In this document: piece by piece, positions 4,177 through 51,124 of the stretch
Position numbering within the stretch: the stretch's first letter is position 1
How the letters are laid out: every line of letters begins with the position of its first letter
From: Spirochaetia bacterium
GTDB taxonomy: Bacteria; Spirochaetota; Spirochaetia; CADAEX01
Assembly (NCBI GenBank): GCA_963662265.2
Contig: CAXXHA010000011.1
Coordinates: forward strand, 128,001 to 192,000
Length of the DNA stretch: 64,000 nt
Reading direction: 5' to 3'
Made by a program: the position numbers and the translations under genes
Notes under the pieces: model-generated
What the model was told of the DNA's origin: nothing
Database searches by the model: none
Seen by the model: the letters and a program-made list of their open reading frames with translations, nothing else

Positions 4177-6675
4177 CTAGAAATCTGTGTAATACTGTTT
4201 ATCAAGTATGAAATTAAGCCTTCTGTAGATAGAACTGATTTTCTCAATCATTCCGGAATCAGTGCTGTCGGGAAGTTCATCCATAAGATTATCGAGACTA
4301 CCTATGCTGGTGGCAAGAGCATTGTCAAAACTCTTAGATACTTTCAGCCAGTAATTTCCCCTGTTGTCTGTATTCAATGATATAAAGCCAAGCTGTTTCC
4401 CTTTTTTCTTTGCCGGGCATGTGTATAGCAGGAATTTGATATTCTGAATTATTATGTTGAGAGCTGTATATGAGTTCATGTTCCCCTTGTGCGGCAGGTT
4501 TTTTACCGACATCCTGACAGGATCCATAAAAGGTACAACCCTGAGAATATTTTTCAGTTTTTCACCGTACAGGAGTTCAAAATTTTTATAGACAATCTTG
4601 CCGGAAATGCCTGAAGGGATGAAAATCTTGCTGAAGTCAGATTTTCTGTGAATATCAACAAGTTTCTCCCAGTCAAGTACAGCCATTTTTTTCTTTTTAC
4701 CCTTGAAAGTTTCAATCTTGAAAAGATACTCTCCAAGTTTGAGTGAATTTGAAGTATCCCGCTTATTTCTCCTGTCGCCGGGTATTTCCTTACTCATAAG
4801 ACGGTCTGCAAGCCCCGGTGATATATTCTTAAGCCATTCTTTTCTCAGCGGTGAAACTGAGTGGGCAAACATCTTGCTTGTTCTTACAATTTCACCTGCA
4901 ACAATAAACTGCGGATTTTCCTTGAACATGACAGAACCGGGATGTATATGGATTTTATCGGCAGTAAGACTCCTGTAGCTGCCTTTACCCGCTTTTACAC
5001 ATACAAACTGTATTAACCCTTTGCAGACGCAGTAGAGGTAGTCAGCTGTGCTTCCTCCTGATGAAATAGGAACCCCTATATCTTCTCTTACAATATCTTC
5101 AAGCTGGGTTTTTATGTTCAGAAGTTCGTTCATCACTTTTATATCAAGGTAGTATCTGTCGCAGAATTCCTCTTTCTTTTCAGATGCTTCAAATTTCCTG
5201 AATATTTTAAGATATGAAACAAAGTCGCCTTCTTTTGTTCTGAGAGAGTGGTGTGCTTTTCTCGCTTCAAACTCCTCGCCCTGCGGCAGGAGGAAGGGTG
5301 AATTAGTGGAGAGAAATGTTGCTGCAATTAGAACTTCCTCAATAACATCCGGGTGGTTATAAACTGCCTCAACTATGATTCTTGAAAGCCTCGGGGAGAG
5401 GGGGAATTTAACCATCATTTCACCGGCCCTGGTAAGAGTATGGTCATTATTAATAGCTTCAAGAAGCTTGAGTGTATCAACAGCCCCTATAATACCCTGT
5501 TTGCCCGGGGATGAAATAAAATCGAATGATTCAAAATCTCTGATTCCAAGTTCAGCCATCCTGAGTACAACCTCGGAAAGGTCAGTCCTGTATATCTCTT
5601 CTTTTGTGAAAAGCTGCCTTGTTTCAAAATCGCTTCTTGTATAGAGCCTGTAACATGTCCCTTCCTGTGTTCTTCCGGCTCTCCCTTTTCTCTGGTTGCA
5701 GGATGCTTTTGAAATATCTGTTTCAAGAAGGGCAGAAGTAAATGTTCTCGGATTATAGTTGTTTATTTTCGCAAGACCTGAATCAATAACAGATGTAATC
5801 CCGTCAATTGTCACGCTGGTTTCTGCTATGTTTGTCGAAACAACAATCTTTGTTTTTCCCCTTGGGGTCTGCACAAAAACCCTTTCCTGCTCCTCTTTTG
5901 AAAGCCTTCCGTAGAGGGGGAGAATTACCATTTTTCTTCTCAAGGGGGATGCATTGAGCATTCTAATGCAGTCTTTTATCTGCTTTTCCCCTGACAGAAA
6001 TACAAGTATATCTCCCTTTCTCCTCTCCTTTATAACCCTGCTTATAATGTCGTTGATTTTCATAATCAGCTCATCATAGCTGTTTCTTCCCTCTTTAAGG
6101 GGTGAATATACAATTCCGACCGGAAATACAATCGAATCTATATGTACTACAGGAACTCCCCCGAAATATTCGGAAAAAACAGTTGTATTGATGGTAGCAG
6201 ATGAAATAATAACCTTAAAATCTTTTCTCTCCTCAATTACCCTCTTGAGAAGGCCGAGGATGAAATCAATATTGAGACTCCTTTCATGTGCCTCATCTAT
6301 AATTATACAGCTGTATTTTGATAGAAGCGGATCTGTTTTTATCTCCTGCAGAAGTATGCCGTCTGTCATTACTTTCAGAAGTGTCTCATGCGATGTCATA
6401 TCATTAAACCGCATCTTATAACCGACAAGACCGGGAACATTTGTCTTCAGCTGGTTTGCCATATAATCGCAGACAGAAAGGGTGGCTATTCTTCTGGGCT
6501 GTGTAACTCCGATTATCCCTTTTGCAGCCATCCCTGCTTCATAGAGAATAAGCGGCAGCTGAGTAGTTTTTCCTGATCCGGTCGGACTTTCTACAATTAT
6601 TACCTGGTTTGTTTCCAGTGCCTCCAGTATCTTGTCTTTCTGCTGGTATACCGGAAGAGTTTTCGGATCTATCAT
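4177..6675 (-). CDS. hrpA: DEAH-box RNA helicase HrpA
   Basis: SPTGSGKTT, TQPRRIA, DEAHER, SAT, STNIAETSVTI, QRKGRAGR. Confidence 0.93.
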   Translation of the reverse strand: MIDPKTLPVYQQKDKILEALETNQVIIVESPTGSGKTTQLPLILYEAGMAAKGIIGVTQPRRIATLSVCDYMANQLKTNVPGLVGYKMRFNDMTSHETLLKVMTDGILLQEIKTDPLLSKYSCIIIDEAHERSLNIDFILGLLKRVIEERKDFKVIISSATINTTVFSEYFGGVPVVHIDSIVFPVGIVYSPLKEGRNSYDELIMKINDIISRVIKERRKGDILVFLSGEKQIKDCIRMLNASPLRRKMVILPLYGRLSKEEQERVFVQTPRGKTKIVVSTNIAETSVTIDGITSVIDSGLAKINNYNPRTFTSALLETDISKASCNQRKGRAGRTQEGTCYRLYTRSDFETRQLFTKEEIYRTDLSEVVLRMAELGIRDFESFDFISSPGKQGIIGAVDTLKLLEAINNDHTLTRAGEMMVKFPLSPRLSRIIVEAVYNHPDVIEEVLIAATFLSTNSPFLLPQGEEFEARKAHHSLRTKEGDFVSYLKIFRKFEASEKKEEFCDRYYLDIKVMNELLNIKTQLEDIVREDIGVPISSGGSTADYLYCVCKGLIQFVCVKAGKGSYRSLTADKIHIHPGSVMFKENPQFIVAGEIVRTSKMFAHSVSPLRKEWLKNISPGLADRLMSKEIPGDRRNKRDTSNSLKLGEYLFKIETFKGKKKKMAVLDWEKLVDIHRKSDFSKIFIPSGISGKIVYKNFELLYGEKLKNILRVVPFMDPVRMSVKNLPHKGNMNSYTALNIIIQNIKFLLYTCPAKKKGKQLGFISLNTDNRGNYWLKVSKSFDNALATSIGSLDNLMDELPDSTDSGMIEKISSIYRRLNFILDKQYYTDF

Positions 6676-46168: not shown

Positions 46169-47146
46169 ATGAGAATTAAAAATATATTTATGCTTATCCT
46201 GATTCTGATATCAGTATCCTCCTGGGCACTGTCTTCAGAAGATGCTTCAAAACAGGCAGTATCTGCATTTGAAAAGTCAGTTTCTTCAAGATCTGTTGCA
46301 GGTGTCGGAAACATAGTATACGGTGAAAAAAAGATAGGAAGCAGCTATTCCCTTTATCTTCAGGAACTTATCTCGGGAGAAATCCAGAAATCTGAAAGCT
46401 TTGAGCTTTCCGACAGGGGAAACCTTGATGATATCATGAAAGAGGTAAAGCTGGCACTGTCAGGTATGACAGATTCCGACACATCAATTGATATCGGGAT
46501 GCTTAAAGGGCTAGAATACATAGTTACAGGCAAATTCTTTGATAACGGAACTAATATCAAGCTCTTCCTTGACCTTGTAAAATCAGATACAGGTGTAAGT
46601 GTTTCAAAAATGCAGTATGTAATCAGCAAATCTACACTTCCGACCGGAGTAGAGCTCCTCCCTGAAAACTACAACGATGCAATGTTTGTGCTTGAAGAAC
46701 TTTCAGACCTTACAAAAAGCAGCGGAAAAGGTCTTGATGTAAGGGCCTGGAATGTACGGGGGGACGGAGGAATATACAGGGACGGAGAGGAGCTTCAGGT
46801 AAACTTTTTTGCAAACCGGGACTGTTTTATCAAGGTCTATCACATTGATGTAAATAAAAAGGCAAGCCTGATATTTCCCAATCCGTATTACTCTGACAAT
46901 CATATAAAAGGAAAGCAGATCGTTAAAATCCCTGACAGCAGATATCCTTTTAAATTCAAGCTTACATCTCCCTACGGATCTGAGTTTATCAAGGTTATAG
47001 CATCCACCACACAGTTCAAGGATATAGAGGATTCTTTTAAAGAACTCGGTACTGCATCAGGCGAGCTTCTTACTAGGGGATTGGTTGTAGAAGCAAAAGA
47101 AACACTTACAGATGAGGCGCTTTTCAGCTACACGATATTAAAGTAA
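46169..47146 (+). CDS. Exported protein: CsgG/FlgO-like N-domain plus DUF4384-like C-domain
   Basis: Signal peptide; DRGNLDDIMKE..L..SG....IG.L....YIVTG; YRDGE...NRDCFIKVYHID....LIFPN...PYGSEFIKVIAS. Confidence 0.72.
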   Translation: MRIKNIFMLILILISVSSWALSSEDASKQAVSAFEKSVSSRSVAGVGNIVYGEKKIGSSYSLYLQELISGEIQKSESFELSDRGNLDDIMKEVKLALSGMTDSDTSIDIGMLKGLEYIVTGKFFDNGTNIKLFLDLVKSDTGVSVSKMQYVISKSTLPTGVELLPENYNDAMFVLEELSDLTKSSGKGLDVRAWNVRGDGGIYRDGEELQVNFFANRDCFIKVYHIDVNKKASLIFPNPYYSDNHIKGKQIVKIPDSRYPFKFKLTSPYGSEFIKVIASTTQFKDIEDSFKELGTASGELLTRGLVVEAKETLTDEALFSYTILK

Positions 47147-47262
47147 TCAGGGAAGCGGTAAATAATTCTGTTGTTATAATAATTTTGCCTGAATAAGGCT
47201 GATAACAATATTACTTTTGGAAAATGAAAACTGAATATTAAAAAGTGAATCAGGAGTGGTTT

Positions 47263-49083
47263 ATGAGAAAAACACTTATTCTTGTCTTTATGATTTTTTT
47301 ATTTCTGACAAATATTATCTATGCACAGAACAAAACAGCCCTCGTCATAGGAAACGGAAGCTATAAGCATTTCTCCCCGTTAAGCAGTCCTAAAAATGAA
47401 GCTTCCGATATGAAGAATGCATTAACACGGCTCGGATTCGATGTAATTCTCCTTCTTGACGGGACACAGGACAGCATTCTGGATGCTGTTTCAGACTTTG
47501 AATATAAACTTAAAAACAGGGGCGGGATTGCATTCTTTCATTACGGTGGTCACGGAGTACAGGTTGAAGGAAGCAACTACATAATACCTGTAGATGCAGA
47601 TATTCCTGATGAGAGAAGGGTAAAGTCGCGTGCTGTTGATATTGATGAGATAATAAGCGCAATGGATGCATCTGGAAGTAAAACCAATATCGTAATACTT
47701 GATGCATGCCGTGATAATCCCCTTCCCGGAGCTTCCCGTTCAGGCACAAGAGGGCTTGCTGTAACAGGACACCAGCCTCCCGACTCAATTATTGTTTACT
47801 CTGCTGATGCCGGAACAACTGCGGAAGACGGCCTTTTTACACCGACACTATTAAAATACCTTGAAAATCCCGGAATGGAATTTACAGATATTCTCAGAAA
47901 GGTACGGAGAGATGTAAGAAAGAAATCCGGAGGAAGGCAGAGGACAGGGGACTATAACCAGCTTGAAAGCGAAATCTACCTTGCAGGGAGAACAGGAAGC
48001 AGCAGCTCTTCCAGTAATTCTTATGCCTCAGCCTCTTCAAAAAAGCCCAGTCTCAGCGTGGAGTCTGCAAAATACGGCTCAGTAAAGCTGATGGTAAAAG
48101 AGGCGGGAACATTATATCTTGACGGTGTAAATATGGGAAAAATAGCTGCAAACAGGTCTGCAACATTAAATAATATTGAGACGGGAAGTCATGCTATAGA
48201 GATAAGATATGCAGGAAATACAGAAAGGAAAACAGTGACTGTCTATGAAAACAGGACAGCAAGCCTTTCATTTTCTTATGAAAAGCCACGTTCTGTGACT
48301 CCAACATCCAGCAATAATACCGGCAAAAACATGGTCTTTGTTGAAGGCGGCACCTTCCAGATGGGCAGTAATTCCGGCGCCAGCCATGAAAAGCCTGTGC
48401 ACAGCGTGACAGTATCGAGTTTTTACATAGGAAAGTATGAGGTAACACAAAGTGAGTATAGCACTGTTACGGGAAAAGACCCTTCTTTTTTAAAGGGAGA
48501 CAGCCTTCCTGTAGAAATGGTTAGCTTTTATGATGCAGTTGAGTACTGTAATGAGTTAAGCAGAAGGGAAGGTCTTTCTACTGCCTATAATATTAACAAA
48601 AGCAGACAGGACTCAAATAACAAGGCCGAATATGATAGACTTAAATGGACAATAACAGTAAACTGGAATGCTGACGGATACAGGCTTCCGACAGAGGCTG
48701 AATGGGAATATGCAGCCCGAGGTGGAAAAATGAGCAGAGGATATAAATACTCAGGATCAAATAATTCAGGAGACGTTGCTTGGAATCGTGATAATTCAGG
48801 AGGGAAAAAACATCCGGTGGGCCAGAAATCAGCAAACGAACTTGGGATATATGATATGAGCGGGAATATCTGTGAGATGTGCTGGGATTGGTATGGAAAA
48901 ACATATTACTCCTCTTCAAGCCAGAGAGATCCACGGGGTCCTGCTTCGGGGGAGAACCGCGTGGTACGGGGAGGCGGAACGGGCTATGATATTTTTTCAC
49001 GGTCTGCCAGTCGCGGCTACTGCAGTCCAAGCGGTTTCGGCGACGGTATAGGCTTCCGCCTTGTTCGATCCGCAGTTCAGTAG
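47263..49083 (+). CDS. Exported caspase-family (peptidase C14)-PEGA-FGE/C-type-lectin protein; candidate DGR target
   Basis: RBS CAGGAG, ATG at 47263, signal peptide; ALVIGN, YGGHG, LDACR; PEGA-like GTLYLDG; MVFVEGGTFQMG, YRLPTEAEWEYAARGG, N.LGIYDMSGN, GFRLVR. Confidence 0.88.
   Translation: MRKTLILVFMIFLFLTNIIYAQNKTALVIGNGSYKHFSPLSSPKNEASDMKNALTRLGFDVILLLDGTQDSILDAVSDFEYKLKNRGGIAFFHYGGHGVQVEGSNYIIPVDADIPDERRVKSRAVDIDEIISAMDASGSKTNIVILDACRDNPLPGASRSGTRGLAVTGHQPPDSIIVYSADAGTTAEDGLFTPTLLKYLENPGMEFTDILRKVRRDVRKKSGGRQRTGDYNQLESEIYLAGRTGSSSSSSNSYASASSKKPSLSVESAKYGSVKLMVKEAGTLYLDGVNMGKIAANRSATLNNIETGSHAIEIRYAGNTERKTVTVYENRTASLSFSYEKPRSVTPTSSNNTGKNMVFVEGGTFQMGSNSGASHEKPVHSVTVSSFYIGKYEVTQSEYSTVTGKDPSFLKGDSLPVEMVSFYDAVEYCNELSRREGLSTAYNINKSRQDSNNKAEYDRLKWTITVNWNADGYRLPTEAEWEYAARGGKMSRGYKYSGSNNSGDVAWNRDNSGGKKHPVGQKSANELGIYDMSGNICEMCWDWYGKTYYSSSSQRDPRGPASGENRVVRGGGTGYDIFSRSASRGYCSPSGFGDGIGFRLVRSAVQ
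48931..49083 (+). other. Putative DGR variable region (VR) plus IMH-like end
   Basis: GC-rich; 7 of 7 Arg codons are CGN; 11 NNY codons at the positions where DGR templates typically carry AAY. Confidence 0.6.
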
Positions 49084-49144
49084 CAGCCGGGAGGAGGCCG
49101 GCTGTTCAGGGGAAGGAGCCGGAGGCAGCCCCCTGAAGCGGAGC
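49084..49144 (+). other. GC-rich hairpins immediately 3' of the putative VR
   Basis: CAGCCGG/CCGGCTG (49084-49104); TTCAGGGG/CCCCTGAA (49105-49137) enclosing GCC-GGA-GGC; GC-GGA-GC at 49138-49144; no T-tail. Confidence 0.7.
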
Positions 49145-49298
49145 TTAAGGGGGCATACTGTAGGCGGAGAAACCGGTAAAAAAATAATTATTATAAGCTG
49201 AATAAATTATTCAGAATTAACATAAAACTAATAAAAAGTTTCTGCAAATAATTTTAAAAAATATATATAATATCTTTAAAAATATCCGGGGAATGTTT

Positions 49299-51124
49299 AT
49301 GAGAAAAGTAATTATTTTTATCAGTTTATTATTGATATTAACAGCTGCTATCCTTCCTGCACAGGATAAATTTGCCCTGGTAATAGGAAACAGCAGCTAC
49401 AAAGGTCTGTCTCCCCTTAAAAATCCTGTAAATGATGCAACTGATATTGCATCAGCTTTAAGGAACATGGGATATAATGTTGAACTTCTCAAGAACAGCA
49501 GTCTGAGCGCCATGGAAACAGGGGTCCTTAATCTTAAAAACAGGTTATCTGTCAGCAAGCACAGTATCGGATTTGTATACTATGCAGGGCACGGAATTCA
49601 GTCAAACGGTGAGAATTTTCTTATTCCTTCAGATGCTGATATAAGGGATGAAGCTTTTTTAAAAACAAAGAGTCTATCAACACAGGTAATGATGGATCTT
49701 CTCGGGGTGCAAGAAATAAACTGAATGTAGTTGTGCTTGATGCGTGCCGTGATAATCCTTTTTCCTGGAACAGGAGCGGGAGCAGGGGGCTTTCTGTAGT
49801 CGGTTCACAGCCACCCGGAAGTATTATTGTATATGCTACAAGTGCAGGAAGTGTTGCCAGGGATGGTTCAGGCCGGAACGGCATATTCACAAAAGAGCTT
49901 CTTAAAAATATGAAAACTCCCGGTATTGATGTAAGCGAGGTATTCCGGCTGACAGGAGCCGGAGTAAGCCGGGTAACAAACGGTAAGCAGGTGCCTGCTG
50001 TATATAATCAGTATTTTGAAAAGATATCACTTTCTGCAGGAACTGTGTCAGGTTCAAATTTAAATAATTCATCTACCGGACCTAAAAATAATCCCGGATT
50101 TAAAGTTGATTCACTGAAATACGGTTCTGTAAAAATCAGTTCTATGGAAGCCGGAAGCGTATTTCTTGACGGAAGCAAAATCGGAGATCTTACTGCAAAC
50201 CGGTCTGCAACACTCACAGATATCCTGACCGGTTCACATAGCATTGAAATGAGGTATACAGACTATACTGAAAGAAAAAGTATTACTATATATGAAAACC
50301 GAACATCAAGTCTGTCATTCACATGGAGAAAATCAGCTTCAGGCAATACTGCTGCCCTGAATAAATCAGCAGCTGACAAACCACAGCTGGTTTATGTAAG
50401 CGGCGGAACATTTCAGATGGGAAGTAAATATAAATCATTTACAGGTCCTGTCCACAGTGTTACCCTGGGAAGTTTTTATATCAGCAAGTATGAAATAACT
50501 CAGGAACAGTATGAATCTGTTATGGGAAAGAATCCCTCAAATTTCAGGGGGAAGAATTTCCCGGTTGATAAGGTGAGCTGGTATGATGCTGTTGAATACT
50601 GCAATGCGCTGAGCAGAAGCGAAGGATTTAATCCTGCATATAACATAAAAAAAAGCAGCTTAATGACAAAAGACGGAAAACCTGATAAATCAAAATGGAC
50701 AGTAACATGCGACTGGAATGCAGATGGATACAGGCTGCCGACAGAAGCAGAATGGGAATATGCTGCCATTGGCGGGAATAAAAGCAGGGGATACAGTTAT
50801 TCAGGTTCAAATAACCCTTCTGAAGTTTCCTGGAATAAGACTACAGGCGGGAAAGTAAGTGCTGTAGGCATGAAAAAACCCAATGAACTGGGTATACATG
50901 ATATGAGCGGGAACCACTGGGAATGGGTCTGGGACTGGTACGGATCTTATTCAGCAGCAAATCAGACAAACCCCAAAGGACCTGAAACAGGTACAAAGAA
51001 AGTGGAGAGAGGCGGTGCATATTATGCCGATCCTGAACTATGCAATGTGAAGTACAGGCTTATGTGTCTGCCTACAGTGGAATACAGCAGTTTAACAATA
51101 AGGGTAGTAAGGCCTGCAAGATAA
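49299..51124 (+). CDS. Paralogous exported caspase-PEGA-FGE protein, split by a 1-nt deletion near 49704
   Basis: Signal peptide, ALVIGN, YAGHG in the first ORF; GARNKLNVVVLDACRDNP, PEGA and FGE motifs continue in the next frame. Confidence 0.85.

Follow-up and report, generated by a model that had tools for sequence, protein, structure and literature searches.

Can a gene keep the mark of a diversity-generating retroelement (DGR) in a genome where the retroelement itself is not found? The question is raised by a gene in a 64,000-nt stretch of a Spirochaetia bacterium genome (GenBank assembly GCA_963662265.2, contig CAXXHA010000011.1, positions 128,001 to 192,000 of the forward strand), referred to here as the window. 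The gene is predicted to encode an exported protein that joins a caspase-type protease, a PEGA-like domain and a formylglycine-generating enzyme (FGE)-sulfatase domain of C-type-lectin (CLec) fold, and its 3′ end departs sharply from the rest of the gene in composition. We consider it very likely that this 3′ segment is of DGR origin. The reading we favor, at moderate likelihood, is that it is a genuine variable region (VR) of the TvpA/FGE class which is now orphaned and frozen, its DGR having been lost recently. The features that carry this argument are listed below.

47263–49083, + strand: caspase/PEGA-like/FGE gene, 606 amino acids from the ATG at 47263, predicted to be exported (open reading frame (ORF) list and translation)
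48931–49083, + strand: candidate DGR-type VR block, GC 0.61, A 0.16, all Arg codons CGN
48976–49050, + strand: hypervariable core, after RGG to before GFR, residues 578–602
49051–49083, + strand: conserved VR 3′ end, GFRLVRSAVQ*, the place where an initiation of mutagenic homing (IMH) site would lie; an IMH is definable only against a template repeat (TR)
49083–49105, + strand: GC hairpin 1, from the last base of the stop, 8 pairs with a 7-nt loop
49128–49154, + strand: GC hairpin 2, inside the 51-nt stretch 49110–49160
48325–49068, + strand: FGE-sulfatase/C-type-lectin-fold domain (PF03781, residues 361–608, E 8.2e-55)

A GC-rich island with atypical codons closes the gene

The genome has a mean GC content of 0.385, and 200-nt windows with a GC of at least 0.58 amount to 0.043%, in 31 islands. 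The initial annotation had pointed to an abrupt GC enrichment in the last ~50 codons of the gene, and the measured values of 0.54–0.65 bear this out; the island comprises the last ~150 nt of the gene plus ~80 nt past the stop, the latter an addition to that description. In successive 100-nt windows the GC is 0.54 (48900–48999), 0.60 (48950–49049), 0.64 (49000–49099), 0.65 (49050–49149) and 0.52 (49100–49199), against 0.35–0.53 in the upstream gene body (~0.40–0.47 in the 400 nt before the island) and 0.17–0.28 in the downstream spacer. Codon choice changes over the same segment. As had been claimed, all seven Arg codons from 48931 onwards are CGN and the corresponding stretch of the tandem paralog uses AGA/AGG (five of five in its last 51 codons); AGA/AGG also account for 22 of 30 Arg codons in the gene body and for 79% of those in long frames genome-wide. 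Among the 28 codons from 48982, 24 end in a pyrimidine (NNY; 13 in C and 11 in T), where genome third positions are C in 18% and T in 34% of cases. Such a run is only mildly unusual, being equaled or exceeded in 3348 of 1,089,313 28-codon windows (0.3%, non-coding frames counted), and we therefore do not take it as proof on its own.

The genome has a further three FGE copies (the tandem paralog, one on contig C28 and one on contig C5); none has a comparable GC island, and the tandem paralog also lacks the CGN signature. Nine of the 30 other GC islands were read as candidates for a hidden TR and none is VR-like; some are coding repeats, one of them low-complexity and of RGG type, and the others are tandem repeats between genes, one tRNA-like stretch and a gene for a membrane protein. 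GC-rich intergenic tandem repeats occur in this AT-rich genome outside the window (C17:50347–50718, C13:60689–60961, C23:22522–22857 and C10:325033–325302), and those on C17, C13 and C10 adjoin a GC hairpin with a T run that resembles a terminator.

The segment resembles true DGR templates and variable regions

For comparison, control VR/TR pairs were obtained by self-BLAST of 105 fetched loci and filtered for adenine-specific mismatches. Mismatches fall at TR adenines in 18/18 cases for locus L022, 15/15 for L034, 17/17 for L046, 19/21 for L071 and 19/20 for L077 (90–100%), and in 8/10 for L113, a locus from a Treponema-like genome of the same class that was checked separately. Two further matches, in L030 and a second one in L077, passed the filter and were rejected, as they look like tandem repeats. 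A profile of DGR reverse transcriptases (RTs) places an RT beside the TR in five of the six control loci, L034 being the exception. The control VR blocks have a GC of 0.53–0.67 in loci of GC 0.42–0.54, and thus form the same type of island as that in the window. One control, L022:172–2233 from a genome of the same family (G006), is a true DGR with its VR at 172–297, TR at 556–681 and RT ORF at 1076–2233; its target is of a different, non-FGE-like type (ending in VVPVRAF*).

The FGE-type control templates read RGGSW-NN...C-R..NR-NN.N-P..R-NNN-.GFR. The 3′ half of the window VR, RSASRGYCSPSGFGDGIGFR (RSASR to GFR), aligns without gaps to the TRs of L034, L071 and L077, and within this half NNY codons do stand exactly where FGE-type templates read Asn, as the initial annotation had proposed: at the six positions that are Asn in all three TRs the window has AGT, GGC, AGT, GGC, GAC and GGT, six of six being NNY (read by eye). 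Scaffold codons agree as well: those for R, R, P and GFR are identical to, or synonymous with, their counterparts in the three templates, and GFRLVRS is spelled with the codons that real TRs use. The codon signature of a DGR target, NNY at template AAY sites in an adenine-poor scaffold (A fraction 0.16), is accordingly present. At the DNA level, the window agrees with the L034 TR at 48/67 non-adenine sites (72%) and at 8/21 adenine sites (38%), and with the L071 TR at 44/66 and 9/26, respectively; the tandem paralog and the C28 copy agree with these two TRs at just 43–45% of non-adenine sites. The 5′ half, flagged earlier as the poorer fit, is so indeed: it reads RGG-GTGYDIFS, one codon short of the control VR/TR sets and without the SW or SF that all eight of them have.

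Of the 23 bases at 49051–49073, 22 recur at the very end of both TR and VR in L113, and likewise at the VR ends of L111 and L112; a phylum-wide DNA search (401 genomes, the window's own included) returned short matches only and no long match. Beyond the stop, hairpin 1 folds as DNA at −8.7 kcal/mol (z −3.83, with 0 of 200 shuffles as good) and the stretch 49110–49160 at −13.2 kcal/mol (z −3.27, 1 of 200 shuffles as good). Neither hairpin has a T tail, and a terminator scan found no site on the + strand after the stop. The control VRs are likewise followed by inverted repeats (read by eye). The domain in which the segment lies points to the same class: the best PDB match of the FGE domain is the DGR protein TvpA (2y3c, E 1.6e-37), true FGEs match at ~1e-17, and the C-terminal VR stretch of TvpA aligns to residues 571–606.

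Variation between close relatives is concentrated in the same segment

The database copy of the protein, P0002, has 606 amino acids, the same as the window ORF, and BLASTP recovers three close homologues, P0003 (85% identity), P0004 (84%) and P0005 (78%), the next matches being at 61–63%. P0004 and P0005 come from a 32.2-kb contig with four caspase–FGE paralogs. Between the window protein (P0001) and these three homologues, identity is 86–98% in the caspase domain, 87–90% in the linker and PEGA-like part and 70–76% in the FGE body, and it is 19–23% (5–6 of 26 positions) in the RGG-to-GFR core. Run X4, from another study, holds the contig of a close relative that shares 37% of the gene's 31-mers. 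In this relative 48976–49082 is exchanged for 115 unalignable letters, and 49083–49300, hairpins included, differs at 8 of 218 places (~96% identical). Variation among close relatives is thus concentrated in the VR, though other pieces of the FGE domain diverge too. The initial annotation would have dropped the DGR reading had TR, RT and variation all been missing; neither TR nor RT was found (see below), and the region does vary between close relatives.

A foreign GC-rich fragment, chimerically joined to the gene end during assembly, is another conceivable origin of the island. The source is a metagenome-assembled genome and the adjacent paralog is frameshifted, yet in each of three runs (X1–X3, one sample, probably the source) a single contig of 18–28 kb spans 48500–49300 with 0 differences, the relative from the other study has the same gene-end and flank architecture, and the frame continues to a stop common to the homologues (AVQ*). 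We regard an artefact as extremely improbable.

A second phylum-wide search, likewise over 401 genomes, found no full-length close ortholog. A subsurface metagenome contig (L025), the sole locus returned when metagenomes were scanned with the protein, encodes an ortholog of 63% identity with a GC-rich, VR-like end (0.58–0.69, L025:2200–2450), in which an in-frame TAG at a variable codon cuts off the last ~16 residues, the GFR-equivalent strand included. Neither TR nor RT lies on this 8.6-kb contig. Its 3′ flank shares a 12-mer with the window and gives no BLAST match to it, so flank homology is not claimed.

Template, reverse transcriptase and Avd were not found in the assembly

If the VR were still being rewritten, a TR and an RT would be expected somewhere within reach. 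As the initial annotation had stated, none lies in the neighborhood of the gene. It had also proposed that a BLASTn of 48931–49100 might uncover a template copy; there is no second copy in the genome's own assembly (3.77 Mb in 41 contigs, 90.6% complete), in which BLAST of the island returns the self match only, and when both strands of the 41 contigs are scanned without gaps and any genome adenine is tolerated, the best non-self placement has 64 non-adenine mismatches in 231. The RT profile PF00078, which picks up the RTs of the control DGRs with E values of 1e-17 to 1e-21, has 0 matches in the genome, and three true DGR RTs used as queries reach at best E 0.29 by tblastn and E 1.1 by profile. 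The Avd profile PF05635 likewise has 0 matches, and HRDC-type accessories were not searched for.

The search was extended beyond the assembly. Runs X1–X3, searched as Logan contigs at a likeness of at least 80%, contain over 48905–49039 the source contig only, with 0 differences, and no TR-like contig. Contigs hide rare variants, so the lack of variation in these runs says little about ongoing diversification. The VR has no match in 19 further genomes from the family and order, and two patterns, one of the 3′ end and one a degenerate VR, gave 0 matches each in viral contigs. The RTs of three relatives (G014, G006 and G010) were considered as possible writers and rejected: none matches the VR, that of G014 stands in a non-DGR context and that of G006 belongs to the L022 DGR, whose VR is not FGE-type.

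In one genus of the family, five genomes (G015–G019) have 5–21 FGE-domain matches each and no RT detectable with PF00078. Large FGE families are therefore possible without a detectable DGR.

An orphaned variable region is the most probable explanation

Composition, codon placement, scaffold-codon identity, kinship with TvpA, post-stop hairpins and hypervariability among strains and homologues together make a DGR origin of the 3′ segment very likely, and the earlier assignment as a DGR-type VR stands on these lines of evidence and on the DNA likeness to TR and VR ends. The competing account without a DGR holds that diversifying selection on lectin loops, with gene conversion or import of GC-richer DNA, made the segment, and that NNY codons and GC are by-products. 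The X4 contig speaks for it: the FGE pieces 48553–48633 and 48740–48879 are also unalignable there, and the 75-nt stretch 48643–48717 recurs with 0 differences ~1.4 kb farther on, where a downstream paralog would be expected. This mosaic suggests gene conversion among tandem paralogs. The lower conservation of the FGE body relative to the caspase domain among homologues fits this account as well, and homologue VRs carry W and Q, which AAY mutagenesis alone would not yield. However, the paralogs are AT-rich in that stretch, which excludes conversion from them as the source of the signature; neither conversion nor selection could yield the CGN Arg codons, 13 NNC codons in 28 and an island of GC 0.6. 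Nor would the account explain the equality of the GFRLVRS codons with those of real TRs or the placement of NNY codons at template Asn positions, and an imported segment with such properties would itself be a DGR VR. We consider this account distinctly unlikely.

Under the reading of an orphaned VR, a DGR RT would have copied an adenine-rich TR into cDNA, randomizing its adenines, and the cDNA would have replaced the 3′ stretch of the gene, rewriting the ligand-binding face of the CLec head. Replacement would have been guided by the conserved 3′ end and probably also by the GC hairpin just past the stop. The writing machinery (TR, RT and Avd) would then have been lost, leaving the region frozen. 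Consistent with this sequence of events, TR, RT and Avd are found neither in the assembly nor in the sample contigs, and the latter hold a single clean allele. Moreover, the 5′ half has lost the scaffold Trp/Phe and has a one-codon deletion relative to the homologues; both changes go beyond adenine mutagenesis and argue for an orphan.

Several points weigh against this reading. No cognate TR was found against which the defining mark of a DGR, VR/TR mismatches confined to TR adenines, could be shown at the locus. The contrast with the paralogs is weak for two of the four heterologous TRs: agreement at non-adenine sites is 55% for the window and 48–55% for the paralogs with the L046 TR, 60% for the window and 62% for the paralog with the L077 TR, and over both TRs combined ranges over 55–60% for the window and 39–62% for the paralogs. 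The further unalignable FGE pieces in the relative imply that recombination shapes the gene too and could have swapped the VR. A 2–3 kb cassette could sit in the missing part of an assembly that is 90.6% complete and in 41 contigs, Logan contigs drop rare variants and a TR less than 80% alike would escape the search. Lastly, un-ameliorated GC and a differing VR beside ~96% identical flanks point to recent writing, which is awkward for a long-dead element.

These last points bear on whether the VR is instead an active remote target, rewritten in trans by a DGR core that lies in the ~9% of the genome missing from the assembly or belongs to an unbinned mobile element. The full GC and CGN signature in a genome of 38.5% GC, the intact frame, the conserved 3′ end and hairpins, a VR wholly unlike that of a relative with near-identical flanks and the incompleteness of the assembly would all follow, and the part of PMC5758913 drawn on here describes remote targets at distances of over 100 kb from the core. 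However, RT, TR and Avd were not found in 3.77 Mb, and the three whole-sample runs, which include unbinned contigs, hold no TR-like contig at the threshold applied and one clean contig across the VR in each. The genome has one clear VR only, and the 5′ half bears non-adenine changes and a codon deletion. We judge an active remote target unlikely, and the initial proposal of a working remote DGR target is not upheld. Less likely still, and improbable in our view, is that the DGR persists elsewhere in the population, on a mobile element that this cell line lacks, and re-diversifies the gene in a hit-and-run manner; if true, this would account for a VR that is pristine and strain-specific and keeps its homing signals in a genome with neither RT nor TR. 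Returning to the orphaned VR, its pristine signature and the differing VR of a relative with near-identical flanks argue that writing stopped recently, or else continues from an unseen element.

The variable region ends a caspase–lectin protein predicted to be exported

What, then, would such a VR diversify? The frame of the gene is open from a GTG at 47245, and its stop, TAG, is 49081–49083. Upstream of the FGE domain the protein has the following parts.

47263–47325, + strand: predicted signal peptide, MRKTLILVFMIFLFLTNIIYA, read from the translation and conserved in homologues, lipobox Cys absent
47332–47961, + strand: Peptidase_C14 (caspase) domain, PF00656, residues 30–239, E 2.1e-33
48109–48273, + strand: PEGA-like β domain, weak, PF08308, E 0.002, 18.5 bits against a cut-off of 20.8 bits

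The hydrophobic N-terminal segment probably acts as a signal peptide. In a Pfam search the caspase match spans profile positions 2–227 of 233, with a His motif (HYGGHG) and a Cys motif (DACR, within DACRDNP), and the domain matches MALT1 paracaspase in the PDB at up to E 2.6e-15. In alignment A1, C155 is invariant and H103 nearly so; we take these two residues to be the catalytic His-Cys dyad. The middle domain scores under the Pfam gathering cut-off for PEGA, and PEGA-like is the most that its sequence allows; the AlphaFold model places β-strands in this stretch (block predicted local distance difference test (pLDDT) 55–85). The initial description of an exported caspase–PEGA–lectin(FGE) protein is thus retained for the Peptidase_C14 domain with its motifs, the signal peptide as read from the translation and the PF03781 domain, and it is weakened for PEGA. 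Structure prediction for the whole protein from a 14-row alignment gave a mean pLDDT of 51.7 and a predicted template modeling score of 0.39, and mapping of the VR residues onto this model was dropped as the model is too poor.

In the portion of PMC5758913 drawn on here, TvpA is described as keeping the FGE motif and lacking formylglycine-generating activity. By analogy, the lectin head of the window protein may bind a surface ligand and would make no formylglycine. Judged from its domains, we are probably dealing with an exported protease that has a seemingly intact His/Cys dyad and a variable lectin head; it is most likely periplasmic or at the surface, where it would be held to, or gated by, the ligand of the head.

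Neighboring genes and the tandem paralog

49293–51124, + strand: tandem caspase–FGE paralog, 51% identity, in two frames with the break near 49690–49735

In the tandem paralog the caspase N-terminal part stops at 49724 and the remainder continues in another frame from 49733; the split could reflect a pseudogene or a single-base assembly error. The upstream gene (46169–47146) encodes a DUF4384 domain and a CsgG/LpoB-like lipoprotein part, and its product may work with the exported caspase. Downstream lie a Memo-like gene and then MptE-like genes and a ROK regulator. Nothing retroelement-like or mobile, and no NTPase or adaptor gene, was found in this neighborhood.

A short ORF at C5:25900–26340, outside the window, runs straight from a caspase-type signal and N-terminus into the final ~90 residues of an FGE domain. 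Between RGG and GFR this ORF agrees with the L034 and L071 TRs at 65–68% of non-adenine sites; it has a mild GC bump there (0.54–0.56) and no GC hairpin downstream. This ORF may be an older, decayed DGR target.

Relation to known systems

The closest known counterparts are the DGR targets of Treponema denticola. The window protein shares with them the phylum, predicted export, TvpA as its best PDB match and a VR end identical at 22/23 bases to that of a Treponema-like locus. TvpA-type targets are short lipoproteins without a protease, whereas the window protein has a caspase and a PEGA-like domain and no lipobox Cys; for the window VR no cognate TR is known, and its 5′ half has lost the conserved SW. 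Up to seven non-adjacent targets of a Treponema DGR are reported in the available part of PMC5758913. T. denticola isolates without RT and TR that keep their target genes are described, in the section of PMC4891356 consulted, as remnants of lost DGRs; such isolates, the category ‘b’ of PMC5758913 as far as the excerpt goes, resemble the genome studied here in having a target gene without the core.

The idea of a diversifiable caspase–lectin protein, put forward in the initial annotation, is not a new concept. The literature has recorded fusions of metacaspase and FGE-sulfatase domains since 2012, in 33 of 671 prokaryotic metacaspases going by the extract of PMC3501461. Cyanobacterial orthocaspase–CLec proteins, according to the accessible text of PMC7517822, are published as DGR variable proteins and remote targets. 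They too combine a caspase-family protease with an FGE/CLec domain at the C-terminus, diversified or open to diversification, but that same text gives them as mostly predicted cytosolic, with the TR in the same genome and in another phylum, whereas the window protein has a predicted signal peptide.

A complete DGR whose target has both a caspase and an FGE domain is seen in a Methylomonas metagenome-assembled genome (L046:2824–6590). Its target has 692 amino acids, with the VR at 4772–4892, the RT ORF at 5338–6432 and the TR at 6470–6590. This target (PF00656 plus PF03781) resembles the window protein in its 3′-end VR and the same RGG...GFR frame; it differs in having its own RT (PF00078, E 1.6e-21) and TR on the contig, and it is only 27% identical to the window protein. 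In multicellular bacteria, hypervariable C-type-lectin or FGE-sulfatase sensors linked to caspase- or trypsin-type peptidase effectors are described in the passages available from PMC10907252 and PMC7159879. In those passages the ‘antigen sensor’ conflict systems are cytoplasmic STAND or MoxR-vWA assemblies with adaptor domains, whereas here a single exported chain would hold both sensor and protease domains. One limited literature search, a weak negative, brought up no publication in which an exported caspase/PEGA-like/FGE protein of a spirochaete is given as the target of a DGR.

If the orphaned VR is what it appears to be, the locus would be one more case of a target that outlives its retroelement, and no new kind of system. 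It would also mean that spirochaetes beyond T. denticola carry an exported caspase-family protease with a DGR-tuned lectin head, and that caspase–CLec DGR targets, known mostly as cytosolic proteins of cyanobacteria, also include an exported protein in a different phylum. For annotation, the C-terminal domain would best be described as a variable binding head rather than a sulfatase-maturing enzyme. The protein is also a candidate for probing what a binding head does for a bacterial caspase.

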